In this document: positions 1 to 30,753 of the stretch, one piece after another
Numbering within the stretch: position 1 is the first letter of the stretch
Layout of the letters: each line of letters begins with the position of its first letter
Assembly: GCF_039926425.1 (NCBI RefSeq)
Contig: NZ_JBDSWZ010000079.1
Coordinates: forward strand, 82-64,081
Source: Dokdonella sp.
Lineage (GTDB): Bacteria > Pseudomonadota > Gammaproteobacteria > Xanthomonadales > Rhodanobacteraceae
Reading direction: 5' to 3'
Length of the DNA: 64,000 nt
Notes under the pieces: model-generated
Seen by the model: only the letters and a program-made list of their open reading frames with translations
Told to the model about the DNA's origin: nothing
Databases searched by the model: none
Program-made: the position numbers and the translations under genes

Positions 1-278
1 TCGGCGAGCCGCTCACCGCACAGCGTCCACAGCTCCTCGAACAGAAATGGCGCGGTCACGATCGTCGGTCCGGCGTCGAACGTGAAACCGTCCTGTCGAT
101 ACACGTACGCGCGACCACCGGGCGCATCAAGCTTCTCGAGCACGGTCACCTTGTAACCGCGCGCGCCGAGCCTCACTGCAGCCGCAAGCCCGCCGAATCC
201 GGCGCCGATCACCAGCGCGACCGGAGGACTGCGCCTGGGCCCGGGAGACAGTCCGGACGGACTGGGAAGTGTCAACAT
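1..278 (-). CDS. crtI: Phytoene desaturase, N-terminal part (runs off the left edge)
   Basis: Hand translation [84 protein letters not shown] contains the Rossmann GxGxxG motif and the Crt[10 protein letters not shown] motif. Not in the ORF track. Confidence 0.93.
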
Positions 279-312
279 TGTGTGACAATATAGAAGTCCG
301 AATGGAGTGACA
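270..312. promoter_or_regulatory. Tandem PpsR operators: perfect TGT-N12-ACA (270-287) and one-mismatch site (295-312), 7 bp apart
   Basis: TGTCAACATTGTGTGACA and AGTCCGAATGGAGTGACA lie between the divergent crtI and idi genes. Confidence 0.85.
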
Positions 313-313
313 A
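285..313 (-). promoter_or_regulatory. sigma70-type promoter of crtI
   Basis: Minus strand TTGTCA (313-308), 17-nt spacer, TATTGT (290-285); overlapped by both PpsR boxes. Confidence 0.65.
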
Positions 314-482
314 CTGAAAAAGCCACGCCGCATTTCCGCGCTTGTCGACGCTCGCGCCACGCCGGGGAGAGAGCCCTCGAATGGGCTTGGCCACGATGAA
401 AGCCGACACAGTCGGCGAACCTGCGCGTGTGGTGCTGTCGCGAAAATATCCGCTGATTCGTTCGTCCGGCGTGGAGGTTGAA

Positions 483-1049
483 ATGGACAGCGTTCCGAAC
501 ATCCGCAACGCCGTGGTGTCGTTCGACAACGAACCGTTGATCCTCGTCGACGAGGATGATCGCGAAATCGGCTACCTCCCGAAGTCCGAAGCACATCTGG
601 GCGCCGGACGCCTTCACCGCGCATTTTCGTTGTTCGTGTTCGACGAGCGCGGTCGCCTGCTGATGCAGCGTCGCGCGGCCACCAAGCGACTGTGGCCCGA
701 CTACTGGTCCAATACCTGCTGCAGCCATCCGCGTCGCGGCGAAGACATCAACAGCGCGGTTCACCGTCGTCTTCACGAAGAGCTGCGACTCAGCTGTCCC
801 CTCGAGTTCCTGTTCAAGTTCCAGTACCAGGCGCAGTTTGATGCGGCGGGTGCGGAGAACGAGTTGTGCTGGGTCTACTCGGGCTGCTCGAACACCGTGC
901 CGGATTTCAACCAGAACGAAATCTCCGATGTGCGTTACATCGAGCCCGCTGAGCTCGACCTGGAAATGAAGCGCCACCCGCGTGATTTCACACCGTGGTT
1001 CAAGCTTGAGTGGGCGCGGATCCGGCGCGGTATCGCCCGCACCGCCTGA
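483..1049 (+). CDS. idi: Isopentenyl-diphosphate delta-isomerase, type 1 (Nudix fold)
   Basis: [19 protein letters not shown] and ENELC motifs; GGAGG RBS at 473-477 before ATG 483. Confidence 0.93.
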
Positions 1050-1070
1050 CGCTCGCGTGGCGATGTCCGC

Positions 1071-1829
1071 TCAGGCGACAGTGTTTGCCGAGGTATCGAC
1101 GACGTCTGTGGCTGGCGCCAACGCCAGCCGTGCGGCCACGATCCGCAAGACCGGCATGCTGCACGCCAATGTGAGATGACCGCCGGGCACTTCGACGTTT
1201 TCCGTGCACGGGCCTTCCAGCTCGAGCGCGTTCCGCCACGGCACGACTGCATCGCTTTTCGAATGGATGGCTGTCGTTGGCACGACCGGCACCGCGTGCG
1301 AAGGAACGAAACCGGGGTCGCCAAGCGCACTGCGAAGCGTCTCGAACGATCGAATCCATCGGTAGGCGCCGGCGAGTTCTGCCGCGCATGGCTGGATCGG
1401 AGTTCCCAGCGTGATTACCCTTCGAACCAGCCCGGGTCGACGGCGCGCCATTTCGCGCGCGTAGAGTCCACCGGCACTCCAGCCGATCAGAGTGAGCGTT
1501 TTCGCGCCGTCCGCAATGTGTTGCGCATGAGCGAGCAGGCGTTCGAGCACGCGCAGGCTGAGGCCGAGATTGCGGCCCTCGTTCCATCCGTGAACCGCGT
1601 AACCGAGTCGATCGATCGCGCGCGCCATTGGCGCCAGCGCAAGGTCACCCGTTGCGAACGCCGGCAGGAGCATGACCGGATGACCATCGCCGTGCGCCAG
1701 TGATTCGGTCGAGGCCGCGGATTCGAAATCGGACCGTTCGCGCGACGTGTGCGTCTCCCCGAGCAGGAGGCGCATCGCGCCGAACCCTGTCGCTCTTGCA
1801 CGATCTGCCACGGGATGTGTGTTCCGCAT
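1071..1829 (-). CDS. Alpha/beta hydrolase (esterase/lipase-like) in the bchO position
   Basis: GDGHPVMLLP, nucleophile elbow GWSAGG, TLGTP, SKSDAVV (Asp) and GGH (His); starts 2 nt after the bchD stop. Confidence 0.8.
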   Translation of the reverse strand: MRNTHPVADRARATGFGAMRLLLGETHTSRERSDFESAASTESLAHGDGHPVMLLPAFATGDLALAPMARAIDRLGYAVHGWNEGRNLGLSLRVLERLLAHAQHIADGAKTLTLIGWSAGGLYAREMARRRPGLVRRVITLGTPIQPCAAELAGAYRWIRSFETLRSALGDPGFVPSHAVPVVPTTAIHSKSDAVVPWRNALELEGPCTENVEVPGGHLTLACSMPVLRIVAARLALAPATDVVDTSANTVA

Positions 1830-1831
1830 GC

Positions 1832-3640
1832 CTAGCGCCTTGCTGGCGCGCGTGCGCCCTTGACGACGCTCGACAGCGACGCCGCGTCCGCGTAGGGCAG
1901 TGGCAGGTACGTCGCATCCATTGCTGCGGCGAGCAGTGCTGCAGCGACTTGCGGGCGCGGCGAGGTATCTAGGAACAGCGTGGTGATCGACGCCGCACGC
2001 AGACGCGACGCGGCGGCACGCGCATCGGACTCGGCCCGCTCACGGTTTCCGGAACCATCTCGCGCAATGTTCGCCCGACCATCGGTGAGAAGGACCAGCG
2101 TTGCCGAATGGCCTGCGCGCTTGACCTGTTCCGCGAGCGCGATGCCGGCATCGATCGCGGCGGCGAGCGGAGTACCGCCTCCGCCGGGAAGTCCGGCGAG
2201 GCTGCGTTTGGCGCGAATCAGCGAACGGGTCGGCGGCAACAGCAGTTCGGCGTCAGTGCCACGGAAGCCGATCACGGCCACCTGGTCGCGTCGCACGTAG
2301 CAGTCGGCGAGCAGCAACTCGACTGCGCCCTTCGCTTCGGCGAGCCGGTTGATTGCAGAAGACCCGGAGGCGTCGACGACAAAGATGGTGGTGGTCTGCG
2401 TGCGCTGTCGATAGCGCGTGACGTGGAAATCCTGGCGACGGATCTCGACGCGCCGGGCCAGCGATGGTGCTCGCGCAGCGCGTCGCAAAGGCTGCCACGG
2501 CGCTGCCGCGCGCAGCGTTTCGACGAGATTGAGACGGATGCCGGCAGACGGGTCGCCCGGTCGTGTTCCTGCCGGACGGCCGCGCCGCATCGATTGCCGC
2601 AGTGCGCCGGCCCGACCGTCGGTCCGCGCGCGCGACGCGCCGCTGTCCTGCACACGCAACCGTTGCAGCAACCCGCGTGGAATCGCGGCGACAGTGGCGG
2701 CAAGAAGCAGCTCATCGAGTGGCATGTCAGGTCGATCGGACTCATCGCCGTCGTCGTGCGGATCGCTCTCTCCCGCGGTTGATGGAGGCGGTTCGTTGCG
2801 TCCGGACTCATCCGGCGCAGGCGGCGGGTCGGATCTGGTTTCCGAGGGAGCAGCCTGCTCCGGCAGAACGGCCGCCCGCGGCGCGAGCACAAGCCGCACC
2901 GCGCACGCAGCGTCCTGGTCCGTTGGTTGCGCCCGTCCGTGCAACGCGGCGAGCGCACAGGCCGCGCGTATCGCCATGATCGATGCACGGACCGACGCAA
3001 CGCCGAGCTTCATCGCCACCGAACAGACTGCTTCGCAAAGATCGTCGCCGCGAATCCGAGCAAGTCGCGTTCGCGCGAGCGCAATGGCATCCGCATCGAA
3101 TACGGTCGCGTCGACGTGCTTCGCGCGCAGTCCCGACAGATCGATGAGGAAAGGCAGTCGGTCGAGCAGACTCGCCCGCACAGGTTCCTCGTCATCGCCC
3201 GCTTCGTCCAATGCAATGACCCCGATCCGTGCAGGCGTCCGGGACGCGAGTCCGTTGCGCTCGAGCACGACAGTGTCGGTATCGAGCACCGCCGCGATGT
3301 GCGCAAGGGTGGACGCATTGAAGCGTTCGGCCATCGGCAGCACGAGGAAGCCGCCATCGGCGTCCGCCAGGATGCCGCGCTGTGCGATCGCACGACCTGC
3401 GCCAAGGGTCGCCGCGAGGTCGAGCCCGCCGAGGAGCCGCTCGTCGCCGACATTCACCGGCACCCTTCGCAGAGGCTCGACCGGCGGCAGGTAGTCGCGC
3501 AACAGCCCGAGCCAACGATCACGCGCATGCCCGTGCGGGGCGCGGATGCATGCGCCACGCAAGCCGGTCGGATTGATCGCAATCAGCGCCGCGGCAAGCG
3601 CTGCGTCCGCCCAGCGCGCCTCGTCGTCCGCGTCGCTCAC
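1832..3640 (-). CDS. bchD: Magnesium chelatase subunit D
   Basis: Degenerate AAA N-terminus (RLLGGLDL), Pro/acidic linker, C-terminal vWA domain (VVDASGS, GGGTPL, TDGRAN); overlaps the bchI stop. Confidence 0.95.
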   Translation of the reverse strand: MSDADDEARWADAALAAALIAINPTGLRGACIRAPHGHARDRWLGLLRDYLPPVEPLRRVPVNVGDERLLGGLDLAATLGAGRAIAQRGILADADGGFLVLPMAERFNASTLAHIAAVLDTDTVVLERNGLASRTPARIGVIALDEAGDDEEPVRASLLDRLPFLIDLSGLRAKHVDATVFDADAIALARTRLARIRGDDLCEAVCSVAMKLGVASVRASIMAIRAACALAALHGRAQPTDQDAACAVRLVLAPRAAVLPEQAAPSETRSDPPPAPDESGRNEPPPSTAGESDPHDDGDESDRPDMPLDELLLAATVAAIPRGLLQRLRVQDSGASRARTDGRAGALRQSMRRGRPAGTRPGDPSAGIRLNLVETLRAAAPWQPLRRAARAPSLARRVEIRRQDFHVTRYRQRTQTTTIFVVDASGSSAINRLAEAKGAVELLLADCYVRRDQVAVIGFRGTDAELLLPPTRSLIRAKRSLAGLPGGGGTPLAAAIDAGIALAEQVKRAGHSATLVLLTDGRANIARDGSGNRERAESDARAAASRLRAASITTLFLDTSPRPQVAAALLAAAMDATYLPLPYADAASLSSVVKGARAPARR

Positions 3641-4674
3641 GCGGCCGTTCCGGGCCCGAACAATTGCGCCACCGCGCGTTCGACCCGAGCGGTGGAGCCG
3701 GTGTCGTCCAGTGGATCGCGGCGCAGGCGATGCCGCAACGACATCGATGCGGAGCGGCGCAGATGGTCGTCACCGACGACCGCATCTCCGGCCAGCGCGG
3801 CGAGCGCGCGGGACGCACGGACCAGCGTCAGTTCGCCGCGAAGACCGTCGGTACCGAGGCTCATGCACAACTGCGCGGCACGCTCGAGCGCACTGTCGGG
3901 AACGCCGATGGCCGGGAGACGCGCACGCGCCTTGACGATGTGTCGCCGGACGCGGTCGTCGTCTTTCTTCCAGTGCTCGATGAAGACGGTGCGATCGCGT
4001 TCGAAATCGTCGCGGCGTCGGACCACCGCCACACGCGCGCCGAGGTCGGTCGGCGTCCTGACTTCGACCGAGAGGCCGAACCGGTCGAGAAGTTGCGGCC
4101 GCAATTCCCCTTCTTCCGGATTGCCGCTGCCGATCAGCACGAACCGCGCCGGATGTCGAACCGACAGGCCTTCGCGCTCGACCAGGTTTTCACCCGACGC
4201 GGCGACGTCGATCAGCAAGTCGACGAGGTGATCTTCGAGAAGGTTGACCTCGTCGACGTACAGAAACCCGCGATTTGCACGCGCCAGCAGTCCCGGTTCG
4301 AATGCCTTCACGCCATCGGCGAGTGCGCGTTCGATGTCCAGCGCGCCAACCACGCGGTCCTCGGTGGCACCGAGTGGAAGGTCGACAACCGGGACGGGAA
4401 TGCGATGCGCCTTGAGCGCGGTGTGTTCACTGCGCGCACGACAGTCGGCGCACCACTGCTGTTCTGTCGCCGGGTCGCAGGCGTAGACGCAGCCGACGTT
4501 GGCACTCATCGGCGGCAACAGCGCCGCAAGCGCGCGCACCGCGGTGGATTTGCCGGTGCCGCGATCGCCGAACACCATCACGCCGCCAATGCTTGCGTCG
4601 ACCGCGGCGATCAGCAGCGCCTGCTTCATCTCCTCCTGGCCGACGATCGCGGAAAAAGGAAAAGGCTGTCCCAT
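3637..4674 (-). CDS. bchI: Magnesium chelatase ATPase subunit I
   Basis: PFSAIVGQ, Walker [37 protein letters not shown]; start placed at MGQPFPF (4674). Confidence 0.96.
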
Positions 4675-4763
4675 GGTCGAGAATTGTCCGCCGCCGAGGA
4701 AGGACCGCTGCGGGTCCGAACGCGCTACGATCGCCCACCGTACCGGACGGAATTCGCACTTGA

Positions 4764-4781
4764 CGTCAAGTTTAGCAGACA
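4764..4781. promoter_or_regulatory. Near-consensus PpsR operator between bchI and the heme oxygenase gene
   Basis: CGTCAAGTTTAGCAGACA (minus strand TGTCTGCTAAACTTGACG); one mismatch to TGT-N12-ACA. Confidence 0.55.
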
Positions 4782-4894
4782 CCTTCGGGCGACTTTTCGT
4801 GATTGTCGACCGGAGGACCCCGCATGCATGCGGGTCACTCCGCGTTCGCCGACCGAACCGGCATCAATGAACGTCGTTCGCATGAGCCCTTGAG

Positions 4895-5548
4895 ATGGAT
4901 ACGGGCCGTCCCGAACCACCGGGTCCGTTGTCGTTGTCCGCGCAGCTTCGTGCCAGGACGCGCGACCTGCACACCCAGGCCGAACGCAGCGGGATCATGC
5001 GCGCGCTTCTCCGCGGCGATGTGCAACGGGCTGCGTACGTGCTGCTTCTACGCAACCTCCACGCGATCTATGCTGCGCTGGAAGCCGCCCTTGAAGCGCA
5101 CGCCGCGCATCCGCTGATTGCGCCGCTGTACGACCCGTTGCTGTGGCGTCGTCGTCCGCTCGAACAAGACCTCGATGCGTTGCATGGCGCCGAATGGCGC
5201 GATCTCGCCATTACCCCGACCACCCGCGACTACGTCATTGTGGTCACCGCCGCGAATCCCGCGACGCTGGTGGCGCACGCCTATGTCCGCTATCTCGGCG
5301 ATCTCAGCGGCGGTCAGATCCTTGCACGCATCGTGCAGGCATCGCTGCAGCTCGAGGGGACGGCTGGCTCCGAGTTCTACCGTTTCGCCACGCCCGATGC
5401 GGGCGCTCTCGCGCAACGCTTCCGGCGCCAGCTGGACGGCATTCCCGTCAACGCTGCCCTCGCAGCGATTATCGTCGGCGAGGCACGTCGATCCTTCTCG
5501 ATGCACGTGCGACTGTTCGAGGAGCTGGCGGTCGCTCCGCCGTCCTGA
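4895..5548 (+). CDS. hmuO: Biliverdin-producing heme oxygenase (HmuO/HO-1 type)
   Basis: Proximal His region TRDLHTQAE and signature HAYVRYLGDLSGGQIL; adjacent to the phytochrome gene. Confidence 0.9.
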   Translation: MDTGRPEPPGPLSLSAQLRARTRDLHTQAERSGIMRALLRGDVQRAAYVLLLRNLHAIYAALEAALEAHAAHPLIAPLYDPLLWRRRPLEQDLDALHGAEWRDLAITPTTRDYVIVVTAANPATLVAHAYVRYLGDLSGGQILARIVQASLQLEGTAGSEFYRFATPDAGALAQRFRRQLDGIPVNAALAAIIVGEARRSFSMHVRLFEELAVAPPS

Positions 5549-5561
5549 TCGCCCGGCGAAC

Positions 5562-7751
5562 TCAACCGTCGCGATCTTTTTCGTAAGCGCGCAATTGCGA
5601 GTAGATCGCGGTCGCACGTTGCGTGGCTGTTCGAAGATCTTCGATCAACGCTGCAACTCCGCTGTTGCCGTTGCCGTCCGCAATGTCGATCGCCGCAAGA
5701 CGCGCGTTGGTGAGGATCGCACCGACCAGTGCGTCTGGCGGCTGCGCGCTCGCCAAATCGGCGGCGTTGCGACCATCGGCCCGACTCGCCTGATAGAGCG
5801 CCTCCTCCAGTTGTCGACGCGCCGCCTCGGCGCGCTTGTTTTCCGACAGATCGGTAAAGATCAGGATGAATCCAAGCACTGCACCGAGCGGACCGGGGAC
5901 CACATCGGCGCGAACGCCGACCGGGACATGGGGCGTGGACACGCCGCCAAACCGAAGCTCGCCTCGCCACGGTCGACGCTGCTCGCGAATCGTGCGGAGC
6001 ATCGCACGCGCATCCGCCGACTCGGTGAAGGCACCCGCAAGTTCGTCGAGCGTGCGGAGTGCCGATGTGCCGATCAGCGTATGGAACATGTCGTTGCTGA
6101 AGAGAATGTTGCCGCCTGCGTCGGCAATGACGACCGGCTCGCGCGCGTTGGCCACGGTGACGCGCACGAGGTTCAACTGGTGCTGCGCGATGAGCAGGCG
6201 CACCGCCTGGATCTGCACGATGATGTCGATCAGCGTGACGCCGATCGCGCGCGCAAGGGCAATCTCGGCATTCGACCACGGCGATGCGGTGCCGCGGACG
6301 ATCTGCGACCACGCCTCGAATGACCGTCGCGGCGACAGGTTCATCGGATCGTTGTCGATCACCGCTTTGGACGGATCTCCCGCCCACGTCACCTCGCTGT
6401 ACTGTTCGGCGCGGAACCACATCAGGTAATCCGGCCGCGAAATCGAGAGCTCCAGGGCGATCAACCCGCTCGCGGTCGGACTGATCGACGCGAACGCAGG
6501 GTTTTCGCGCGACACCGATGAACAGCAGAACATCGAATCGGTCTTCTGCGCGGCGACCCACGCAAGAAGTTTCCGCAGCTCGGGGGTCGATGGCACGTCG
6601 CCAACGGTCTGGATCTCGTCTTCGAAAAACAATGCCGCACCCGTTGCATCGAGCGGTTGCAGCAGCGTTCGCGGGCTGCGAAACAGCGCGCGCCGCCAGT
6701 CGCCATCCGTGGATGTGGCGTCGATCAGCCGCTGTTCGAGCGCACGCACAAGAATGACCCCTTGCGCGTGCGCGTAATTCTCGACTGCAGTGATGCGCGT
6801 CGAGATGACTTCGGCGAGCAGCCCGCACGCCGCACGCAGGCTGTATCCGATCCGCCGCGGCGAATAGTGGTGGCAGGCGATCAGGCCCCACAGGCGACCT
6901 TCGCGAACCAGCGACACCACCAGGGTGGCGGTGACGCCCATGTTCTTGAGGTACTGCAGGTGGAGCGGTGACATGCTCCGCAGGTAACACAGCGACATGT
7001 CCAGTTCGCTGCTGTCGGGCAGCACCGGAACCGGCTCGTAGTGGACGTCGACGAGGACGCGGACGCGATTGCGAACGTAGAGCGCGCGCGCGCGATGCGG
7101 GATGTCGGTCGACGGATAATGATGTCCCAGCAGGGATTCGAGCGATTTCCTGCGTGCTTCCGCAATGATCTCGCCGTGACCGTCCGGATCAAACTTGTAG
7201 ACCATCACCCGGTCGTAGCCCAGCAGCGCGCGCAGCGATTGCACCACGGAGTCAGAAAGCGCGGTCACGCTCGTCGCACTGCTGAACCGCTCGACCGCAG
7301 TGCCAAGCTGCAGGCGCAGTTCCTCGCCCGTGATGTCAATGCTCTCGATCGCAGACACGTCCGAATCGACGGGCTCCAGCTCGACGATGAGTCGCTCTCC
7401 GGCAATCCGATGAAGGATGCCTTCGAACTCCAGTGCACGGGAATTTCCGGTTGCATCGACAAAGCAGCGCAGAGGTTGCGGTTCGTCGAGAAGGTCACCG
7501 TCAAGCAGTCGCTCGATTCGACGTTGCAGGTTGCCGCCGAGTTCTGCGATCGAGCGACCCACCAGCGCCTCAACGGGAATCCCCAGGAGACCTGCGACGT
7601 TTGCGCTCGCCATTTCCACGCGCAAGCCGGTTTCATGAAGGACCAGCAGCACGCCATGTGGCTGCACGGAACCCGCAAGATGGATCAGCTCGCGCTCGCA
7701 GTTGGTGAGGTCGGCCTGACCAAACGCCGGACTGAGCAGCAGGCCCGTCAT
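5562..7751 (-). CDS. bphP1: Bacteriophytochrome, BphP1 type (PAS-GAF-PHY-PAS-helical output, no histidine kinase)
   Basis: N-terminal SPAFGQADLTNCERELIHLAGSVQPHG with the biliverdin-binding Cys, YPSTDIP, PRRSF tongue; C-terminal PAS plus HOS-like helices resembling Rhodopseudomonas BphP1. Confidence 0.92.
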   Translation of the reverse strand: MTGLLLSPAFGQADLTNCERELIHLAGSVQPHGVLLVLHETGLRVEMASANVAGLLGIPVEALVGRSIAELGGNLQRRIERLLDGDLLDEPQPLRCFVDATGNSRALEFEGILHRIAGERLIVELEPVDSDVSAIESIDITGEELRLQLGTAVERFSSATSVTALSDSVVQSLRALLGYDRVMVYKFDPDGHGEIIAEARRKSLESLLGHHYPSTDIPHRARALYVRNRVRVLVDVHYEPVPVLPDSSELDMSLCYLRSMSPLHLQYLKNMGVTATLVVSLVREGRLWGLIACHHYSPRRIGYSLRAACGLLAEVISTRITAVENYAHAQGVILVRALEQRLIDATSTDGDWRRALFRSPRTLLQPLDATGAALFFEDEIQTVGDVPSTPELRKLLAWVAAQKTDSMFCCSSVSRENPAFASISPTASGLIALELSISRPDYLMWFRAEQYSEVTWAGDPSKAVIDNDPMNLSPRRSFEAWSQIVRGTASPWSNAEIALARAIGVTLIDIIVQIQAVRLLIAQHQLNLVRVTVANAREPVVIADAGGNILFSNDMFHTLIGTSALRTLDELAGAFTESADARAMLRTIREQRRPWRGELRFGGVSTPHVPVGVRADVVPGPLGAVLGFILIFTDLSENKRAEAARRQLEEALYQASRADGRNAADLASAQPPDALVGAILTNARLAAIDIADGNGNSGVAALIEDLRTATQRATAIYSQLRAYEKDRDG

Positions 7752-7832
7752 TTCCGGCCCGCAAGACGGCCGGGAACACGCTCGTGTTCGCAGGCGCGCA
7801 ACATCAACCGGTGACCGGAAGCGACCACGCGC

Positions 7833-9077
7833 TCAATGCACGTTGCGATCAGGACGTTCGCCATCGTCGAGGTGCTGCATCGTCGAATGATGCGAGACGC
7901 GGATGAGAAATCCGACGAGGCCATCCTGCCCGACAACCGTCGCCGAGAATTCCACATCGACCCGATCGGCGCTTGCGCGGCGCAGCCGGCCAGCCTGCAG
8001 GCCGAGCGACCCTTCGCGCCGAACACGCGCGAGTAGCATTCCGATGCTCGATTCTTTCGATCCCGCGGGGTCCACGAAAATCCAGTCCTCGAGATTGCCG
8101 CCGACGATGTGCCGACCGGGGGGACATTGCAGCAGATCAAGCAACGCCTGATTGACGATTTCGATGCGACCGGCACCACTGCAGACGACCACCGCATCCG
8201 GAGCGCGACGAATGAGGTCTGCAAATATCCGGTCCGCGTCTGCTCCAACCGAAATGGCATCGCGCGCCGTGTCGGCCCGTGGCGCAATCGACGCGGAAAG
8301 GAACATCACCACCAGAACCGGCACCGCCTCGTTGTCGAACGGCGTCACCGAAAACCCGATCTCCGCCCGATCATCGCCAAGCCGCAGAACGCCTTCCGCG
8401 ACACGCGCGGTGCGGCGCGCCGCCTCGAGACCAGCGGTCAACTCCCGCTGCGCATCCGCGCTGAACAGATCGGCGGTTGACCGACCTGCAATCTGCCGGG
8501 TTGATTGTCCGAGCATGCGTGCAGCAGCTGCGTTCGCGTCAAGGACACCCAGGCTCGACGCATCGAAGATCAGCGCGGGCTCGCTCGACACCTGGAACAG
8601 CAAGCGGTAGCGCGTTTCCGCCTGGCGATGCCGCCAATGGTCACGCTCCATGTCTTTCTGGCTTTGCAGCAGACGCTCCTGCATCGCGGCGACCGCGCGC
8701 ATGTCGCGACCGACGGCCAGCGTCGGACCCTGATCGCCCAGCCGGACCGCGGCATACGCAATCGGGATGTCCAGACCTTCGGACGCGTGCTCGACGTGGC
8801 GCAGTCGCGACACGCCGGTGCTGGCGAGATCGTCGAGAACCGCCTCGACCTTCTCGCGCGTGTTCCCGGTGACGGTGTCGCTCCAGCGCTGGCCGACCCA
8901 CTCGCAAGCCGATTCGGAAACGGCCTGCGTTTCGCCGAGTGCCACACTCCGGATCACTCCGCCCTCATCGAGCACAAGTGCAATGTCGTAGGCGACCGAC
9001 ACAAGCATGTCCGCAAGCTCCGGTGCAAGGTCGGACAACGCACTGAGATCCGCGAACGGACGAGGCTTTTTGCTCAT
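7833..9077 (-). CDS. ppsR2: PpsR2-like multi-PAS protein lacking the C-terminal HTH
   Basis: N-PAS, Q-linker (GRDMRAVAAMQERLLQSQKDMERDHWRHRQAETRYRLLFQ), PAS1 and PAS2, then a stop with no Fis-type HTH; AGGAG RBS before ATG 9077. Confidence 0.85.
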   Translation of the reverse strand: MSKKPRPFADLSALSDLAPELADMLVSVAYDIALVLDEGGVIRSVALGETQAVSESACEWVGQRWSDTVTGNTREKVEAVLDDLASTGVSRLRHVEHASEGLDIPIAYAAVRLGDQGPTLAVGRDMRAVAAMQERLLQSQKDMERDHWRHRQAETRYRLLFQVSSEPALIFDASSLGVLDANAAAARMLGQSTRQIAGRSTADLFSADAQRELTAGLEAARRTARVAEGVLRLGDDRAEIGFSVTPFDNEAVPVLVVMFLSASIAPRADTARDAISVGADADRIFADLIRRAPDAVVVCSGAGRIEIVNQALLDLLQCPPGRHIVGGNLEDWIFVDPAGSKESSIGMLLARVRREGSLGLQAGRLRRASADRVDVEFSATVVGQDGLVGFLIRVSHHSTMQHLDDGERPDRNVH

Positions 9078-9161
9078 GTGCCGCTCCTGCACGTGCGAAA
9101 CGACGTGGAGCGGGTTGCTCGTTGTCGCCGAACTCGAAATCGCCGGATCGACTCCATCGAT

Positions 9162-9536
9162 TCAGCCACTGCCCATGATAGTTTTTTTTCTGTCCGGCTG
9201 CGAAGAATCCTGCGGAGAGCCTTCCTGCGCCGACGGCAGCGTGGACCTGGGCGACGCCGGACGCCAACGCCGGGAAAGATCGAGCAGGTGGCCGATCAGG
9301 GACGCGACCAGCGCCACCGCAATCCACGTCCACGACTGCCCGGTCAGAGCGGCACGCAACGCAAACAGCAGACAAGTGCCGGATGCGAGATTGATGAGCA
9401 GGTCAGTGAACGAGATCCCGCTCGACGTGCGCCGGAAGTAGAGGCCAAGTGCGAGCGCTTCCACCAGCATGACGGCAAGCACCAGATCGACGATTCGGCC
9501 GGAGCCGAAAAACGCGACCATGCTGTCTGCAGTCAT
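9162..9536 (-). CDS. Small membrane protein of unknown function (about 3 TM), PGC-associated
   Basis: Three hydrophobic segments; starts 3 nt after the tspO stop. Confidence 0.7.
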   Translation of the reverse strand: MTADSMVAFFGSGRIVDLVLAVMLVEALALGLYFRRTSSGISFTDLLINLASGTCLLFALRAALTGQSWTWIAVALVASLIGHLLDLSRRWRPASPRSTLPSAQEGSPQDSSQPDRKKTIMGSG

Positions 9537-9539
9537 GGG

Positions 9540-10037
9540 TCAACCGCCTGTGAAAGGTCCGTTGAGACGGATGATGGCGAGATTGAGGATCGACGCGAAA
9601 CTGACCCAGACGAGGTATGGCGTCAGCAACAGGCTCGAGGTGCGCGAGTAATTCCACATCAGCACCATCAGAGTGACGATCGACGACCACAGCAGAGACA
9701 CCTCGTACAACGCGAAATCCGGCCGGTGCATGCGGAAGAACAGCACGCTCCACACCACGTTGAGAACGACGTTGGCAGCGAACACGATCAGCATGCGGCG
9801 GCGGCTCGTCGCATCGGGAGCACGACGCCAGGCCAACAGTCCCGAGAGCGCGGCGAGTGCGAAGATCGTCGTCCAGACTGGACCGAACAGCCAGTCGGGC
9901 GGCTGCCACGACGGTTTTTGAAGTGCGTAGTACCACGCACTGAGATCAGTCGCGAGCGCGCCGAATCCGCTGGCGGCGGCAGCCGCCAGCAATGCGATCA
10001 CCACCGGCTTCCACCGCTGCCGTCCAGTCCGCGTCAT
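9540..10037 (-). CDS. tspO: TspO/MBR tryptophan-rich sensory protein
   Basis: WYYALQKPSWQPPDWLFGPVW and PYLVWVSFASILN motifs; overlaps the bchP stop. Confidence 0.95.
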   Translation of the reverse strand: MTRTGRQRWKPVVIALLAAAAASGFGALATDLSAWYYALQKPSWQPPDWLFGPVWTTIFALAALSGLLAWRRAPDATSRRRMLIVFAANVVLNVVWSVLFFRMHRPDFALYEVSLLWSSIVTLMVLMWNYSRTSSLLLTPYLVWVSFASILNLAIIRLNGPFTGG

Positions 10038-13487: not shown

Positions 13488-13539
13488 GCATTTTCCAGAC
13501 GAATCGGACGCCCCGAGCGTTGCACATGACGCGTCAATG

Positions 13540-13557
13540 TGTCCAGCATTCGTGACA
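13540..13557. promoter_or_regulatory. PpsR operator upstream of bchG
   Basis: Perfect TGTCCAGCATTCGTGACA (TGT-N12-ACA), 52 bp upstream of the bchG start. Confidence 0.85.
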
Positions 13558-13639
13558 CTTTTCAGCGCCGCGTTTGCCGGTGCGAAGATGCGGCCATGGG
13601 CAACGGTGCGACCCGCGCTTCAAGCGGCGCGACCATCAC

Positions 13640-13801: not shown

Positions 13802-13803
13802 GC

Positions 13804-16485: not shown

Positions 16486-16542
16486 TGTAAGGAAACTTAG
16501 ACGTCGCATTTAGTTGACAGTCAGAAACCGCGGGTCTAGATT
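16486..16542 (+). promoter_or_regulatory. bchF promoter overlapped by two near-consensus PpsR boxes
   Basis: TTGACA (16514-16519), 17 nt, TAGATT (16537-16542); TGTAAGGAAACTTAGACG (16486-16503) and CGTCGCATTTAGTTGACA (16502-16519). Confidence 0.75.
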
Positions 16543-16577
16543 CCGAACGGTCAACGACGAGCGGCGGATGCGAAGAA

Positions 16578-18385
<1,808 letters not shown>

Positions 18386-18386
18386 C

Positions 18387-19956: not shown

Positions 19957-19982
<26 letters not shown>
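18387..19982 (+). CDS. bchB: Dark-operative protochlorophyllide reductase subunit B
   Basis: [26 protein letters not shown]-terminal PCP_red domain ([15 protein letters not shown]). Confidence 0.96.
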
Positions 19983-24622
<4,640 letters not shown>

Positions 24623-24623
<1 letters not shown>

Positions 24624-25324
24624 TGAGCCACGACAGCTACGTCGCGCGTCGCGGCCAGCTCGAAACCTATTTCGACCGCACCGCAGCGGACGCGTGGGCG
24701 CGGCTGACATCGACTGCCAAAGTCAGCCGGATCCGTGAAACCGTTCGCGCGGGTCGCGACCGCATGCGTGCGACGTTGCTCAGCCGGCTCCCCGATGACC
24801 TCACCGGCGCACGCGTACTCGATGCCGGCTGCGGTACGGGCGCATTGGCGGTCGAAGCGGCACGTCGTGGTGCCGAGGTGGTCGCGATCGATTTGTCGCC
24901 GACGCTGGTCAAGCTCGCCGCCGAGCGCCTGCCCACCGACCTCGGCCGCGGGCGGATCGAGCTGCATGTCGGCGACATGCTCGATTCCAGGCTCGGTGAA
25001 TTCGATCACGTCGTCGGTATGGATTCGCTGATCCACTACCGTGCCGGCGACATGGTCGATGCAGTGCAGTCGCTGATTGCGCGGACGCGCACCAGCCTGC
25101 AGTTCACGTTCGCACCGCGCACGCCGTTGCTCACCGTGATGCACAACGTCGGCAAGCTGTTTCCACGCGGCGACCGCGCGCCGGCCATCGAACCGGTATC
25201 GGAATCGACGCTGCGTCGACTGATTGGCACACGTCCTGCGCTGACGATGTGGACAATCGGTCAGACCACGCGCATCAAGAGCGGCTTCTATACCTCGCAG
25301 GCACTGGAGCTGGTGCGCCGATGA
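24623..25324 (+). CDS. bchM: Mg-protoporphyrin IX methyltransferase
   Basis: YFDRTAADAWARLTS, VLDAGCGTG, MDSLIHY; start at MSHDSY. Confidence 0.95.
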
Positions 25325-26781
25325 AGTTCAACGCGGCATTCGCCCAGCGCTGGACCAAGCTCGGTCCGCAGTTCCTGCCGTTCGCCGATGCGGCGACGCC
25401 GGAGCTGCCACTGAAGCGCTTGCTGCGCCTGTCGCTGTTTCAGGTGTCGGTCGGGATGGCCATCGCACTGCTGGTCGGTACGCTCAACCGAGTGATGATC
25501 GTCGAGCTGCAGGTGTCGGCCAGCCTTGTCGGCCTGATGATTGCGCTGCCACTGGTGTTCGCGCCATTCCGGGCGATCATCGGCTTTCGCTCGGACACGC
25601 ATCGCTCGGTGCTGGGCTGGCGGCGGGTGCCATACATCTGGTTCGGCTCGCTGCTGCAATTCGGCGGCCTCGCCATCATGCCGTTCGCGCTGATCGTGCT
25701 GTCCGGAGACACGAACGGCCCTGTCGTTTACGGCGAAATCGCGGCGGCATTCGCGTTCCTCCTGATCGGCGCAGGGCTGCACACCACGCAGACTGTCGGC
25801 CTCGCACTCGCGACGGATCTCGCACCGGACGCGTCGCGACCGAAAGTGGTCGCGCTGATGTGCACGATGCTGCTGCTCGGCGTCGCCTTCAGCTCGGTGA
25901 TCTTCGGTTTGTTGCTGCATGACTTCAGCCAGCTGCGCCTGATCAAGGTCGTGCAAGGGACTGCGGTGGTGACGATGATGCTCAACATCGCCGCGCTGTG
26001 GAAACAGGAAGTGCGCGACCCCGCGCTCACGTCGCCGGATCGCGAACTTCCTTCATTCAGGGAATCGTGGCGCGAACTGCGCACCGACGATCTCGCGGTG
26101 CGACGACTCATCGCGCTGGGCATCGGCACGTTCGCATTCGGCATGCAGGACATCTTGCTGGAGCCGTATGGCGGTGAGGTGCTGAAGCTGTCGGTGGCGG
26201 CGACCACATTGCTCACCGCGATCCTCGCCGCAACCGGGCTCACGGGTTTCGTGATGGCCGCGCGTGCGATCGGCCGCGGCTTCGATGCCTACCGCATTGC
26301 CTGCCTCGGAACCCTCTCCGGCCTTGTCGGCATGACCGGCGTGGTGTTTTCAGCCCCGCTCCATTCCGTGCTGCTGTTCGCCATCGGCGTCGGCGGCATC
26401 GGTTTCGGCAGCGGCATGTTCGCGCACAGCACGCTGACCGTTGCGATGAAACTCGCGCCGAAAGGTCAGGTCGGCCTCGCAATCGGCATCTGGGGCGCAG
26501 TGCAGGCGACCTCGTCAGGCGTGGCCATCGCAATCAGTGGAGTCCTGCGGGACTCGATCAACAGCATCGCGCGCACCGGGGAGCTCGGCGTCGCGCTGAG
26601 CGGTCCGGCTACCGGATATGGCGCGGTCTACAATCTCGAGATCATTCTTCTTTTCGCGACTCTCATCGCGATCGGTCCGCTGGTGCGCCTCTCGCGCCAC
26701 GATGCACCGCTTTCGTTGTCCGCCGGCACGGTTCTGCCGGATTTCCAACTCAGTACGCAAAGCCGGGAGCTGGTCCCATGA
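25321..26781 (+). CDS. lhaA: LH1 assembly protein LhaA (PucC-like MFS)
   Basis: FLPFADAATPELPLKRLLRLSLFQ, GTLNRVMIVEL and SVLGWRRVPY motifs; lies between bchM and puhA. Confidence 0.93.
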   Translation: MKFNAAFAQRWTKLGPQFLPFADAATPELPLKRLLRLSLFQVSVGMAIALLVGTLNRVMIVELQVSASLVGLMIALPLVFAPFRAIIGFRSDTHRSVLGWRRVPYIWFGSLLQFGGLAIMPFALIVLSGDTNGPVVYGEIAAAFAFLLIGAGLHTTQTVGLALATDLAPDASRPKVVALMCTMLLLGVAFSSVIFGLLLHDFSQLRLIKVVQGTAVVTMMLNIAALWKQEVRDPALTSPDRELPSFRESWRELRTDDLAVRRLIALGIGTFAFGMQDILLEPYGGEVLKLSVAATTLLTAILAATGLTGFVMAARAIGRGFDAYRIACLGTLSGLVGMTGVVFSAPLHSVLLFAIGVGGIGFGSGMFAHSTLTVAMKLAPKGQVGLAIGIWGAVQATSSGVAIAISGVLRDSINSIARTGELGVALSGPATGYGAVYNLEIILLFATLIAIGPLVRLSRHDAPLSLSAGTVLPDFQLSTQSRELVP

Positions 26782-27551
26782 ATCAAGGCGCCATTACGTC
26801 ATCGATCGACATCGCACAGGTCACCCTGTACCTCTTCTGGTTCTTTTTTGCCGGGCTTCTCTATTACCTGCGGCGCGAGGACAAGCGCGAGGGCTATCCG
26901 CTGGAGGAGGCGAACCCCGGTTCGCGCAAATCCATCGACGGATTCCCGGGGCGACCGACGCAGAAGATTTTCACCCTTCCTCACGGCGGTACGCGGATTC
27001 GGCCGGAGATCGGACCCGATGACGCGAACAAGTCGCTCGATACCGCACCGACAGCATGGTGGACATCGGCGCCGATCGATCCGACCGGCAATCCGATGCT
27101 CGCAGGGGTAGGGCCCGGCGCGTGGGCAGACCGCCCGGACCATGCGGAACTCACCGTCGAAGGACTTCCGAAGATCGTCCCTCTGCGAGCGGATGCGGCC
27201 TATTCGCTTGATCGACGCGATCCGGACCCGCGCGGCAACCCGGTACTTGGAGCCGATGGCGCTGTCGGCGGCACGATCGTCGACATCTGGGTCGACCGTT
27301 CCGAACGGCTGTTCCGCTATCTGGAAGTCGAGGTGGCCGGCGGGCGACACGTGCTGCTGCCGGTGAATTTCACCAAGATCACCAACCGTGGCACGGTCAA
27401 CGTGCGTTCGATCCTCGGCAGTCATTTCACCGACGTGCCGGGCCTGCGCAATCCGGAGCAGGTGACGATGCTGGAGGAGGAGAAAATCATGGCGTACTAC
27501 GGCGCGGGAACACTGTACGCAAAGCCGTCGCGCCTGGGACCTCTGCTATGA
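26778..27551 (+). CDS. puhA: Photosynthetic reaction centre H subunit
   Basis: GAITSSIDIAQVTLYLFWFFFAGLLYYLRREDKREGYPL, GNPMLAGVGP and EEEKIMAYYGAG motifs. Confidence 0.96.
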   Translation: MNQGAITSSIDIAQVTLYLFWFFFAGLLYYLRREDKREGYPLEEANPGSRKSIDGFPGRPTQKIFTLPHGGTRIRPEIGPDDANKSLDTAPTAWWTSAPIDPTGNPMLAGVGPGAWADRPDHAELTVEGLPKIVPLRADAAYSLDRRDPDPRGNPVLGADGAVGGTIVDIWVDRSERLFRYLEVEVAGGRHVLLPVNFTKITNRGTVNVRSILGSHFTDVPGLRNPEQVTMLEEEKIMAYYGAGTLYAKPSRLGPLL

Positions 27552-28216
27552 CGCACGAATCCGCGACCACAGTGAAGGAATTGCCGGAGGCACTGCCGCC
27601 GGGTGAGCACATCCTCTGGCAAGGTCGCCCCGAGTGGCGATCCCTGTATCGGCGCGCATACCACGGTCGAACGCTGGCGATCTATTTCGCTGTGCTGCTG
27701 GCATTGCGCGGCGCCACGGTTCTCTGGTTCGGCGGCACCGTCGGTGCGGCGGCGATCGCGATCCTCTGGTTGTTGCCAGCGGCCTTGTTCTCGCTTGGCG
27801 TTCTCGCCGTGCTCGCATGGCTGAGTGCGCGCGCGACCTGGTACACGATCACTGATCGTCGTGTGTGCATGCGGATTGGCGTTGTCCTCGAGATCACCTT
27901 CAACTTCCCGTTCCAGGTCATCGATGCGGCGGGCTTGCACCAGTATCCCGATGGCAGCGGAGACATCCCGCTGATGTTCATGGACGGTGAGCAGATCGCC
28001 TATGCGCACCTGTGGCCGCATGCGCGGCCATGGCGCCTTCGCAGGACCGAACCAATGATGCGTTGCGTTCCCGATGCCGCAAAGGTCGCCGAACTTCTCG
28101 CGGGTGCGATTCGCACGGCGATCAGTCCAGAAGCGCGCTCTTTCCGCGTGGCCTTCGATCACGCCAATCTGGATATCGACGCGCCCTCCGCCAACGCAAC
28201 CGCCAGCGCGGCTTGA
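27548..28216 (+). CDS. puhB: Photosynthetic complex assembly protein PuhB
   Basis: LPEALPPGEHILWQGRP, YTITDRRV and HLWPHARPW motifs. Confidence 0.93.
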   Translation: MTHESATTVKELPEALPPGEHILWQGRPEWRSLYRRAYHGRTLAIYFAVLLALRGATVLWFGGTVGAAAIAILWLLPAALFSLGVLAVLAWLSARATWYTITDRRVCMRIGVVLEITFNFPFQVIDAAGLHQYPDGSGDIPLMFMDGEQIAYAHLWPHARPWRLRRTEPMMRCVPDAAKVAELLAGAIRTAISPEARSFRVAFDHANLDIDAPSANATASAA

Positions 28217-28230
28217 CCTGCGGAGTTTTC

Positions 28231-28776
28231 ATGAGCGAACACGGCCACAACGCACAATTCCCGAAGCTGCCGCTGTACACGGCAGCCGCGCTGATCGTTA
28301 CGACGCTGATACTGGTGACCATCACCCGGCTCACCGGTTTCGGCGATCTTCGGACACCGCAGACAGCCATCGTCAGCGAACGCGACCTGCGTTTTCAGGA
28401 CATGCAGGATGGAGGCATCACCGTCATCGATGCGTCCACCCAGCAGGTGGTCGAACAGGTAGCGCCGGGAACCAATGGATTTCTTCGGGGCACGCTGCGC
28501 GGACTCGCACGCGAGCGGAAGCGCGAGGGAATCGGCCCGGACATCGCGTTCCGGCTCACCGGCCGCAGCGACGGCCGATTGTTGCTCGAAGATCCTGCAA
28601 CCAGACGCCTGATCGATCTCGGCTCTTTTGGCCCGACCAATGCGGCAGTCTTTGCTCGCTTGTTGCTCGAACAGCCGAAGGGCACCGCTCCCGTGACGGC
28701 CACTGCGCCCGCGATGCCCGGGACGCCGCTCGCGTCGCTTGGAGCGGATGCGGCCGGCGTTGCTGGCCAACCTTGA
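28231..28776 (+). CDS. puhC: Photosynthetic complex assembly protein PuhC
   Basis: [21 protein letters not shown] and [14 protein letters not shown] motifs. Confidence 0.92.
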
Positions 28777-28801
28777 ACCATCATCCCGAGGAGAGTCCGC
28801 C

Positions 28802-29866
28802 ATGACCGCCACCGTCGCCGGACGCACGCCCAACGAATCCACCCAGCGCGCGCAACAGGACACCCTGCTGTCGCCGCGTTTCTACACGACCGATTTCGCG
28901 GCGATGGATCGCATCGACGTCAGTGCGGTCCGCGGCCAGTGGGATTCGCTGATCGCCGAATTCGAAGCCGACGTCAACGCGGTGCATTTCCAGCGCCCGG
29001 CCAATCTCGACAAGGATTATTCGCACCTTCCCGAAGGCCTCTACCAGGAATTCGTCGACTTCATGATCAGCTCGGTGACCGCCGAGTTTTCCGGCTGCGT
29101 GCTGTACACGGACATCAAGAAGAAGACCACCAATCCTGATATCCAGGCGCTGTTCGGGTACATGGCCCGTGATGAAGCGCGCCATGCGGGTTTCATCAAC
29201 CAGTGGTTGAAGGACTTCGGCATCGCCGTCGATCTCGGCTTCCTGACGCGCGCTAAGAAATACAAGTACTTCAGCCCGAAATTCATCTTCTACGCAACAT
29301 ACCTGTCGGAGAAGATCGGCTACGCACGCTACATCACGATCTTCCGTCAGATCGAAAAGCATCCGGAGTTGCGCTTCCACCCGATCTTCCAGTGGTTCGA
29401 TCGGTGGTGCAACGATGAATTCCGCCACGGTGAAGCATTTGCGCTGCTGATGCGCGCAAACCCGAAGCTGCTCGGCGGCGTGAACAAGTTGTGGATCCGC
29501 TTCTTCCTTCTCGCAGTGTTCGCGACGATGTACGTGCGCGACCACGAGCGCGTCGAGTTGTACAAGGCGTTCGACATGGACCCGACCGATTACGATTTCA
29601 CCGTCTTCCGCATCACCAGCGAGATTTCGCGACAGGTGTTTCCGCTCACGGTCAACATCGATGATCCGCGCTTTCGCGCATGCCTCGACAGGCTGCTCAA
29701 GATCAACCAGCAATATGCCGCAGCCAAGGCGGCCGGTGGCTTCCTCAACAAGCTCAAGGGCGTCACGCTCGCCGCGCGCGCCGCGCTCACGTTCGGACGC
29801 CTGTATCTCCTGCCCACGCATTCCCACGCGTTGCCGACGGACGTGCGCCTGGCGCCGGCCTGGTGA
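28802..29866 (+). CDS. acsF: Aerobic Mg-protoporphyrin IX monomethyl ester cyclase
   Basis: [11 protein letters not shown]; diiron ligands [20 protein letters not shown] and DEFRHGE. Confidence 0.96.
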
Positions 29867-30753
29867 GCGCGCCCGTGTCGCTATCGAACCATGTGGCGCC
29901 GATCGCGTTCACGCTGTTCCTGTGGTGGTTCAGCACGGGGGCGATCCTGTACCTCGACGGATTGCGCCCACGGACGTTCCGCTGGAGTCTCGGAGCCGCA
30001 AGTGTGGTGGCACTCGGAGCGCTGTACGCGTTACGGGTAACGTCCGAGGACACGAGTGCCAGCGCGATGTATTGCGCCTTCACCTGCACGATCCTGATCT
30101 GGGGCTGGGTGGAAATGGCGTTCCTGATGGGATTCGTCACCGGCCCACGCACGAGCCCATGCCCCGCCGGTGCACGCGGTTGGCGACGTGCCGGATTCGC
30201 CTTTGAAACCATCGCATACCATGAAATCGCGCTGCTGATTGCCGGCGTGATTATTGCCATCATCACGTGGGAAGCGCCGAATCTTCTCGGCCTGCACAGC
30301 TTTGCGGTGTTATGGATTTCGCGGCAGAGCACAAAACTCAACTTGTTCCTCGGAGTACGCAATCTCAGCGAGGAATTCCTGCCCACCCATCTGCGTTATC
30401 TCGAATCGTATTTCACACGCAGCCCGATGAACCTGCTGTTCCCGCTTTCGGTAAGTGCCGGAACCTGCGGCGCCGCGTTGCTGTGGAATGCGGCGCTCGC
30501 GGACGGCATCGCTGCGTCGACGTCGATCTCGTTGAGCTTTCTTGCAACGCTGCTCACTCTGGCCTTGCTGGAGCACTGGTTCTTGGTGGCACCGATCAAC
30601 GTGTCGGCGTTGTGGAACTGGAGTCTCGGCAATCGGGTTTCCCAGGACGTGACCACCGATCCCACGTACAAGCCGGATTCCAGCATGCGGGTGACGACGG
30701 CGCTGTCGGACGAAAGCAGTGCGCAAACCGAGCTGTGCCATTCGAGGCTGTAA
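29863..30753 (+). CDS. puhE: Photosynthetic complex assembly protein PuhE (DUF3623)
   Basis: [18 protein letters not shown] and LALLEHWFL motifs; GTG overlaps the acsF stop. Confidence 0.9.

Follow-up and report, generated by a model that had tools for sequence, protein, structure and literature searches.

A purple-bacterial-type photosynthesis gene cluster in a Dokdonella-like chromosomal segment: gene content, probable history and likely physiology

A 64,000-nucleotide stretch of DNA from Dokdonella sp. (contig NZ_JBDSWZ010000079.1 of assembly GCF_039926425.1, positions 82 to 64,081 of the forward strand; this whole stretch is called the window here) carries a photosynthesis gene cluster (PGC) on its left side and a chromosomal backbone on its right. 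The window is probably a chromosomal segment of Dokdonella-like Rhodanobacteraceae of soil or rhizosphere in which the PGC is maintained, and this judgment includes the phototrophy and the regulation that the genes suggest. Its left 31–33 kb are best explained as part of a type-II PGC of purple bacteria about 48 kb long, of which they would make up the two thirds on the right. By profile annotation, the sequence encodes the steps from protoporphyrin IX to the 3-vinyl-bacteriochlorophyllide hydratase together with esterification and reduction (bchIDH, bchM, acsF, bchLNB, bchF, bchG and bchP), and also the reaction-center H subunit, the assembly factors puhB, puhC, puhE and lhaA, and part of the carotenoid pathway (crtI and idi).

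The window is 64% G+C and contains many shadow open reading frames (ORFs). Genes were called with a scorer based on codon usage and on G+C at third codon positions (GC3), and their products were named with NCBIfam and Pfam profiles. Positions 1–30753 hold 27 uninterrupted ORFs, about 20 of which are structural bch, crt or puh genes, and the others are regulators or conserved ORFs. An earlier note made from the sequence alone had counted about 30 intact bch/crt/puh genes contiguous with the backbone; the genes are indeed intact and contiguous with it, and the count was slightly generous. The PGC proteins match their NCBIfam equivalog profiles mostly end to end and above curated cut-offs, for instance BchH over 2–1247 of 1245 (2209 bits) and BchD over 6–596 of 585. 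The superoperon bchFNBHLM-lhaA-puhABC-acsF-puhE is complete, with 12 contiguous genes on the + strand at 16578–30753, all with equivalog-level matches. It begins with bchF, bchN, bchB and bchH (16578–23715; BchF 189.8 bits, BchN 631.8 bits), and BchB scores 825 bits on NF002790, below the cut-off of 912, and 622 bits on TIGR01278, above the cut-off of 490. It continues with bchL, bchM and lhaA, a member of the PucC family (23751–26781; BchL 445.7 bits, BchM 249.4 bits, PUCC 1.2e-140), and ends with puhA, puhB, puhC, acsF and puhE (26778–30753), all above curated cut-offs (PuhA 341.6 bits, PuhB 222, PuhC 165, AcsF 481.7, PuhE 280).

To the left of the superoperon, most genes lie on the − strand. 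The Mg-chelatase is complete with bchH, bchD (1832–3640, −; NF009943, 746.7 bits against a cut-off of 571) and bchI (3637–4782, −; TIGR02030, 516.6 bits against 467), and the late steps are represented by the geranylgeranyl reductase gene bchP (10034–11242, −; TIGR02023, 500.8 bits) and the bacteriochlorophyll synthase gene bchG (12600–13487, −; TIGR01476, 321 bits; NF005742, 400 bits). At the very edge of the window lie the N-terminal 69 amino acids of a CrtI-family phytoene desaturase (3–212, −; start at 212; TIGR02734 crtI_fam, 5.8e-30), a gene that continues past the left edge. Full-length CrtI-family genes of sister PGCs match this fragment at their N-terminus with 92–96% identity, and the homolog in locus L247 scores 632 bits on crtI_fam. 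Beside it lies idi, for a type-1 isopentenyl-diphosphate isomerase (381–1049, start possibly at 342, +; NF002995, 1.5e-50, above the curated cut-off). The cluster thus runs off the left edge, and pufL, pufM, genes for light-harvesting complex 1 (LH1) and bchCXYZ were not found within the 64-kb window.

The backbone (34534–64000) is of Dokdonella type by NCBIfam annotation and by collinearity. It encodes Sel1 and BNR proteins, the histidine kinase (HK) and response regulator (RR) of a sortase system, Rpe, DjlA, PurC, a VolA lipase, a choice-of-anchor B protein, LpdA with an N-terminal lipoyl domain, MscS, AceF, a glutathione S-transferase, an FHA-GGDEF protein and a Ser/Thr kinase with TPR repeats. 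In a tblastn search of all window proteins against fetched loci (numbered with L), it is collinear with the Dokdonella loci L162, L163, L165, L173, L183 and L229 at 50–89% identity per gene, with 70–88% protein identity to Dokdonella genomes as the overall figure for the 31 kb that flank the PGC; the window from 40 to 64 kb is gene-for-gene collinear with Dokdonella, with 16 genes in order in L183 and a mean identity of 80.5% to L162. The closest relatives of LpdA are found in Dokdonella metagenome-assembled genomes (MAGs; 85%), followed by D. soli (82%) and by D. ginsengisoli and D. fugitiva (80%). The first backbone gene is trpE (32952–34430, −; TIGR00564, 552 bits). Its product is closest to TrpE of Tahibacter and Rhodanobacter (80%), followed by other Xanthomonadales (72–78%), with other orders at 65% or below, and the block trpE-HK-RR-rpe-djlA is collinear with a Tahibacter MAG. 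Dokdonella belongs to the family Rhodanobacteraceae of the order Lysobacterales (equivalent to Xanthomonadales), and the sequence was recovered from metagenomes of rhizosphere, roots and soil that belong to a single study (rhizosphere run SRR26386594). The suggestion of a Dokdonella-like host in the earlier note is therefore borne out by LpdA and by the collinear 40–64 kb, and the genes it had named as clues (trpE, rpe, djlA, purC and the lipoyl-bearing lpdA) were all recovered by profile, with aceF in addition. Two other clues fared less well. GGGAATC repeats are weakly enriched (15 against 8.3 ± 2.7 expected, a count reached by 1 of 100 shuffles) and were dropped as evidence, and the DGFE-tailed secreted proteins came down to one protein (g31) with a DGFE-like tail and no other.

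The relationships of the PGC were examined with a neighbor-joining (NJ) tree with bootstrap, built from concatenated BchL, BchM, LhaA, PuhA, PuhB, PuhC, AcsF and PuhE (2119 columns, 31 taxa). The window falls in a clade with 100% bootstrap together with the Lysobacterales MAG LS6_sbin.39 (LS6), Panacagrimonas and Hydrocarboniphaga. The next relatives are mostly Burkholderiales at 60–65% identity (best 65%). For bchM, lhaA, puhA, puhB, acsF, puhE and the cytochrome gene that follows puhE, comparison of the window with locus L405 (PuhA 85% identical) gave a ratio of nonsynonymous to synonymous substitution rates (dN/dS) of 0.08–0.16 at dS 0.7–1.8 (cytochrome, 0.15). The low ratio indicates that the PGC genes are maintained by purifying selection. 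G+C is 0.642 and 0.647 on the two sides of the junction between PGC and backbone, and tetranucleotide usage correlates across the junction as strongly as it does within either side, in a test of low power that also fails to separate Burkholderiales PGCs (r = 0.81). No tRNA, integrase, Rfam match or flanking direct repeats were found at the PGC in the window, and no rRNA or tRNA was found anywhere in it by tRNA scan and Rfam. Since there is no composition break and no sign of a mobile element and dN/dS is low, the acquisition does not appear to be recent. Judged from these sequences, the lineage has long carried the PGC, and purifying selection acts on it.

How the cluster came to be there is a separate matter, and two histories were weighed. 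The PGC could have descended vertically from an ancestor of Xanthomonadales and Nevskiales and have been lost in most descendants. Such a history agrees with a PGC clade made up of Lysobacterales and Nevskiales only, with Burkholderiales and Steroidobacteraceae as the nearest outgroup, which broadly mirrors host taxonomy; it agrees as well with the fully ameliorated composition and with an architecture common to three Lysobacterales genomes. However, over the eight proteins the window is no closer to LS6 (76.9% identity) than to Nevskiales (78.0–78.2%), whereas the backbone behaves otherwise, with LpdA and AceF 78–81% identical to LS6 and TrpE at 57–65% outside Xanthomonadales. The genomic position of the PGC also differs between relatives: trpE lies on its right here and in locus L334, while L405 has a GGDEF gene there and LS6 has a PAS-GGDEF gene and no cytochrome gene. 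Finally, a scan limited to patterns found no PuhA match in cultured D. soli, D. fugitiva or D. ginsengisoli. We consider vertical descent unlikely, and it is the best of the alternatives discussed here. Because PGC distances do not track host relatedness and right flanks differ, the comparison favors a cluster that moved laterally among Rhodanobacteraceae and Nevskiales some time in the past, and not a recent acquisition.

The regulatory genes lie in the left arm of the cluster. A full-length ppsR/crtJ repressor gene with a Fis-type helix-turn-helix (HTH) is found at 13804–15225 (−; TIGR02040, 484 bits; HTH_8 at residues 422–459). A second gene (7833–9092, −) encodes a PpsR paralog that stops before the DNA-binding HTH. 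It matches TIGR02040 over profile positions 1–359 of 442 with 249.5 bits, below the cut-off of 275.4, aligns to residues 22–378 of the full-length PpsR at 34% identity and ends at residue 419, and Pfam found no HTH_8 in it. Adjacent to it are a bacteriophytochrome gene with PAS2-GAF-PHY-PAS domains and without a histidine-kinase domain (5562–7751, −; Pfam, and the NCBIfam BphP model over residues 9–588), with a conserved Cys within the N-terminal motif DLTNCERELIH, and a gene for a heme oxygenase (4895–5548, +; Pfam PF01126, 1.6e-53), a putative supplier of biliverdin to the phytochrome. The same association of an HTH-less PpsR paralog with a kinase-less phytochrome and a heme oxygenase is kept in the Lysobacterales MAG loci L247 and L250 and in the Burkholderiales loci L091 and L097.

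The arrangement resembles the BphP1-PpsR2 module of Rhodopseudomonas palustris and Bradyrhizobium ORS278, in which a kinase-less PAS2-GAF-PHY phytochrome with a C-terminal PAS domain and an N-terminal Cys is encoded inside the PGC, where its gene has a second ppsR-like gene and a heme oxygenase gene as neighbors. That pair is reportedly responsible for far-red control of photosystem synthesis in these two organisms, as is said to have been described by Giraud and colleagues in 2002 and in later structural work. In contrast to the paralog in the window, PpsR2 is an HTH-bearing, DNA-binding repressor. Since the paralog has no HTH, any action it has must be by protein–protein contact and not by DNA-binding repression, and it may be an anti-repressor of this kind. 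Palindromes of the form TGT-N12-ACA, the PpsR/CrtJ-type site, occur 16 times in the window against 6.6 ± 2.4 expected, with 12 of the 16 within 1–31000, and we infer that they include binding sites of PpsR. Two putative sites are TGTCAACATTGTGTGACA (270–287), in the divergent crtI/idi promoter region, and TGTCCAGCATTCGTGACA (13540–13557), between bchG and ppsR; a further palindrome at 30966–30983, in the spacer upstream of the cytochrome gene, is a single match and a hint only. From established purple-bacterial biology, PpsR would repress bch, crt and puf promoters at such palindromes under high oxygen, and the phytochrome module would lift this repression in far-red light, as in R. palustris and Bradyrhizobium.

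As for physiology, aerobic anoxygenic photoheterotrophy is the likeliest mode of life that the genes suggest. The cell would make bacteriochlorophyll a and a reaction center–LH1 complex under oxic conditions and would use light as a supplementary source of energy. We infer this because the oxygen-dependent cyclase gene acsF is the sole cyclase gene in the cluster, bchE is absent from the window and the host genus is aerobic; described Dokdonella species are aerobes. A facultatively anaerobic, possibly autotrophic phototroph of the purple type would also fit PpsR, TspO and phytochrome regulation, which are established in facultatively anaerobic purple bacteria too, and nothing in the window speaks against bchE or genes of the Calvin cycle in other parts of the genome. 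Given that the only cyclase is the oxygen-dependent one, that described members of the genus live aerobically and that the sequence comes from metagenomes of oxic soil, roots and rhizosphere, we regard such an organism as very unlikely.

Several points weigh against the picture of a maintained PGC in an aerobic photoheterotroph. The tree is a simple NJ tree, and the order within the clade is unsupported (window with LS6, 37%). The physiology is read from the window, and bchE, RuBisCO and respiratory genes could lie elsewhere. The PpsR sites are consensus matches only. The genes pufLM and bchCXYZ are outside the window, and the source contig of 74,744 bp extends at most 10.7 kb beyond it, so that part of the cluster is probably on another contig, and this may be true of the puf operon. 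A Logan contig that covers the left edge continues for only 246 nt past it and gives no direct link to pufLM. No RNA runs holding the sequence were found.

Sister genomes suggest what the missing part would be. The Lysobacterales MAGs LS6_sbin.39 (JBBSOU010000002.1) and Co_metawrap_1867 (JBBQTY010000005.1) share the order crtI-idi-bchD-bchI-heme oxygenase-bphP-ppsR-like-orf-tspO with the window. To the left of crtI, LS6 has crtC, crtE, a crtF-like methyltransferase gene, bchC, bchX and bchY; in the Lysobacterales MAG loci L247 and L250, bchC and bchXYZ are found on this side of crtI. LS6 carries pufM on the same 65-kb contig as its PGC, and the LS6 contig with lpdA (LpdA 78% identical to that of the window) has the same coverage as the PGC contig, 28×. 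By synteny, bchCXYZ, pufBALM(C) and crtCEF would be expected just past the left edge of the window. In one rhizosphere metagenome that holds the sequence (run X1), contigs were placed on the loci of relatives at a likeness of at least 80%. A contig of 6570 nt (depth 11.1) is collinear with bchC-crtF-crtE-crtC of the relatives, and three others, of 2209, 953 and 4679 nt (depth 11.7–13.4), align to pufC, pufM and pufL. These depths are those of the genome of the window, and the contigs are consistent with a complete cluster of about 48 kb in it; their assignment to this genome is circumstantial because the sample contains other phototrophs.

The absence of reaction-center L/M and chlorophyllide reductase genes from the window, the short remainder of the source contig and the lack of RNA runs would also be expected if the cluster were a relic, in which pigment genes were kept, pufLM or bchXYZ were lost and the organism became non-phototrophic. 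Such a relic is hard to reconcile with 27 intact ORFs and with the dN/dS across bchM–puhE, which at the observed dS indicates long-term purifying selection. Moreover, we know of no role for puhA, puhB, puhC, puhE or lhaA without a reaction center. Together with the pufM of the sister LS6 and the same-depth puf and bchC–crtC contigs in the same sample, this leaves the relic a slim chance, and a functional PGC in the living organism is the preferred reading.

The junction between PGC and backbone was checked by read coverage and by independent assemblies. One Logan contig of 9061 bp from run X1 leads from bchL through puhE, the spacer and the cytochrome gene to 27 nt into trpE. Its depth is 12.4, compared with word depths in the same run of 12–13 for the PGC over 1–12000 and 12–15 for the backbone. 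A JGI contig of a related organism (L325) joins puhE (74% identical at the amino acid level) to the cytochrome gene (85%), and in a JGI contig of a different organism (L334) the cytochrome gene (88%) adjoins about 980 nt of trpE (97% at the amino acid and 88.6% at the nucleotide level). In L405, bchM to puhE are followed by psiE, the cytochrome gene and then the GGDEF gene. Depth is thus equal on both sides and relatives repeat both joins. A chimera of assembly or binning, in which a Nevskiales or Burkholderiales PGC was misjoined to a Dokdonella backbone inside conserved trpE, would account for the break of the Logan contigs inside trpE (about 32978–33410), for the word depth of 31–37 at this break, where several related genomes share the stretch, and for the Nevskiales MAGs among the closest PGC proteins, yet it is extremely improbable because a contig spans the joins and contigs of other organisms reproduce them, with equal depth on both sides, the same PGC architecture in two other Lysobacterales MAGs and PufM annotated by NCBI in Dokdonella MAGs as further arguments.

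The gene next to the junction encodes a tri-heme c-type cytochrome (31286–32845, +) with a signal peptide, CxxCH motifs at residues 48, 194 and 313 and a C-terminal extension of about 120 amino acids. A spacer of 530 bp separates it from puhE. Its best structural likeness is PDB 8hdd_B, the beta subunit of a flavin adenine dinucleotide (FAD)-dependent glucose dehydrogenase (1.2e-83), and its family comprises cytochrome subunits of membrane-bound flavoprotein dehydrogenases. Because the gene travels with puhE in relatives, the right boundary of the PGC is better placed at 32845 than at 30753, and the cytochrome gene is probably the last gene of the cluster. Homologs adjoin tspO at PGC edges in L397 (10022–11617), L385 and L402. 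The extended cytochrome was seen at a PGC edge in at least six independent contigs. It is an orphan: no gene nearby encodes the catalytic subunit of a dehydrogenase. The idea that the C-terminally extended form is exclusive to PGCs was rejected, as L326 and L327 carry it beside a formate/nitrite transporter gene.

A more detailed picture can be sketched, which we put forward tentatively as a possibility and not as the probable state of affairs. An undescribed soil and rhizosphere clade of Dokdonella-like bacteria would be truly phototrophic, with a PGC lineage exchanged with Nevskiales; the tri-heme cytochrome at the edge would be an electron-transfer partner; and the kinase-less phytochrome and the HTH-less PpsR paralog would form a light switch that works by protein contacts on the canonical PpsR.

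The remaining ORFs of the cluster are less well defined. An alpha/beta hydrolase gene in the position of bchO (1071–1829, −; Pfam Abhydrolase_1) has same-position homologs in L242–L245 at 46–50% identity. A conserved ORF of 124 amino acids without a family match (orf124; 9162–9536, −), with same-position homologs in L247 (61% identity) and L397 (39%), lies beside tspO (9540–10037, −; NF047825, 1.4e-30), and a gene for a PucC-family protein of the major facilitator superfamily (11239–12603, −; Pfam PUCC, 1.1e-88) lies between bchP and bchG. In the position of ppaA/aerR is a conserved ORF of 231 amino acids (orf231; 15303–15998, −), 30–31% identical to same-position ORFs in L113 and L397; it had no Pfam or NCBIfam match, also as a version of 316 amino acids.

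In the backbone, the sortase-type HK and RR pair (36553–39367, −) is of the "proteobacterial dedicated sortase system" type, with the RR above its cut-off at 364 bits and the HK below its cut-off of 612 at 487 bits. No sortase or LPXTG target was visible within the window; genes for a BNR-repeat protein with the C-terminus ...VDGFEGN and for a Sel1-repeat protein lie beside the pair. GGGAATC is present three times in tandem (38597–38617) inside the 5′ end of the HK gene. It also occurs in a perfect inverted repeat of 32 nt with a 13-nt loop (ACGTCATTCCCGCGAAGGCGGGAATCCATTTT; 40110–40186), upstream of rpe (40207–40881, −), which looks like an extragenic palindrome of the repetitive (REP) type or a terminator. 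A direct repeat of 218 nt (55013–55230 and 57546–57763, 73% identity) corresponds to the lipoyl domains of the lpdA N-terminus and of aceF and points to duplication or transfer of the domain within the pyruvate dehydrogenase locus. Between the choice-of-anchor B gene and lpdA (52350–53394) no gene was called, with weak minus-strand ORFs of 172 and 253 amino acids, and the G+C is lower here, at 0.605 in the 52–54 kb bin.

Members of the Rhodanobacteraceae, Dokdonella among them, abound in soils, rhizospheres and wastewater and are regarded as ordinary chemoheterotrophs. If the present reading is true, photoheterotrophy based on bacteriochlorophyll would extend to a common terrestrial group of Gammaproteobacteria. 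The PGC would provide a concrete target for isolation, for example by infrared-fluorescence screening of rhizosphere isolates, and studies of PGC spread between orders would gain a chromosomal example with good linkage. In the literature searched, no paper was found that ties Dokdonella, Rhodanobacteraceae, Xanthomonadales or Lysobacterales to a PGC, and no such culture was found; these groups go unmentioned in a review of aerobic anoxygenic phototrophs from 2025 and in an evolutionary survey from 2026. The view of the earlier note that the lineage is rarely associated with phototrophy thus stands for published papers and falls short for databases, which hold PufM in MAGs of Dokdonella sp., Xanthomonadales and Nevskiales. 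NCBI annotates PufM in Dokdonella sp. MAGs (MEO7432729.1, MEO7876836.1 and WP_348059450.1), and a published pufM reference set contains Xanthomonadales and Nevskiales entries, namely Wenzhouxiangellaceae, Nevskia and one Rhodanobacter MAG (Villena-Alemany et al., 2024; PMC10976687, supplement). The system is therefore of a known kind and is already present, unremarked, in public MAGs and NCBI annotations, and phototrophy in the family is not described in the literature that was found.

PuhA is likewise present in NCBI in Nevskia ramosa (on a 4.84-Mb contig) and in Nevskia and Panacagrimonas MAGs; no discussion of the N. ramosa PuhA was found in the literature. N. ramosa is a cultured bacterium and would be a tractable relative for the PGC clade. 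The nearest PuhA in NCBI is 71% identical to that of the window, and matches of 84–85% were found solely in raw Logan assemblies. Two further loci, L322 (ENA, 18.8 kb) and L324 (Logan), carry PufM sequences that cluster at 90% identity with the PufM annotated by NCBI in Dokdonella sp. Their layout is another one: bchCXYZ-pufBALMC is followed by yaeQ and by a gene for a lipocalin, and this arm converges with puhE-acsF-puhCBA. PGC architecture may therefore not be uniform among these relatives, although the host of L322 is unassigned.

Among known systems, the aerobic anoxygenic phototrophs of the OM60/NOR5 clade (Congregibacter, Luminiphilus and Chromatocurvus) are likewise aerobic Gammaproteobacteria with a chromosomal PGC. 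They are marine members of the order Cellvibrionales and are not among the closest PuhA relatives of the window. The PGCs of Burkholderiales (Rubrivivax, Pseudorhodoferax and Burkholderiales bacterium 8X) have the same superoperon layout at 60–65% identity, and some of these loci (L091 and L097) also have the heme oxygenase, BphP and the PpsR paralog, but they form a separate clade on another host backbone. The PGCs of Nevskiales (Panacagrimonas, Hydrocarboniphaga and Nevskia MAGs) belong to the same 100%-bootstrap clade, with 78% identity over the eight proteins, and have in common with the window the bchFNBHLM-lhaA-puhABC-acsF-puhE block and the crtI-idi-hydrolase block. They differ in host order, in pufCML-bchZ lying convergent directly after puhE and, in Panacagrimonas, in crtI being apart from idi. 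LS6_sbin.39 and Co_metawrap_1867 differ from the window in a protein identity of about 70–77% over the cluster and in having no BchO-like gene between idi and bchD, where the window has one; LS6 in addition has no cytochrome c gene after puhE and another right flank. Conversely, they share with the window the gene orders crtI–tspO and bchF–puhE, the module of phytochrome, heme oxygenase and HTH-less PpsR, and a backbone in which LpdA is 76–78% and AceF 81–84% identical.

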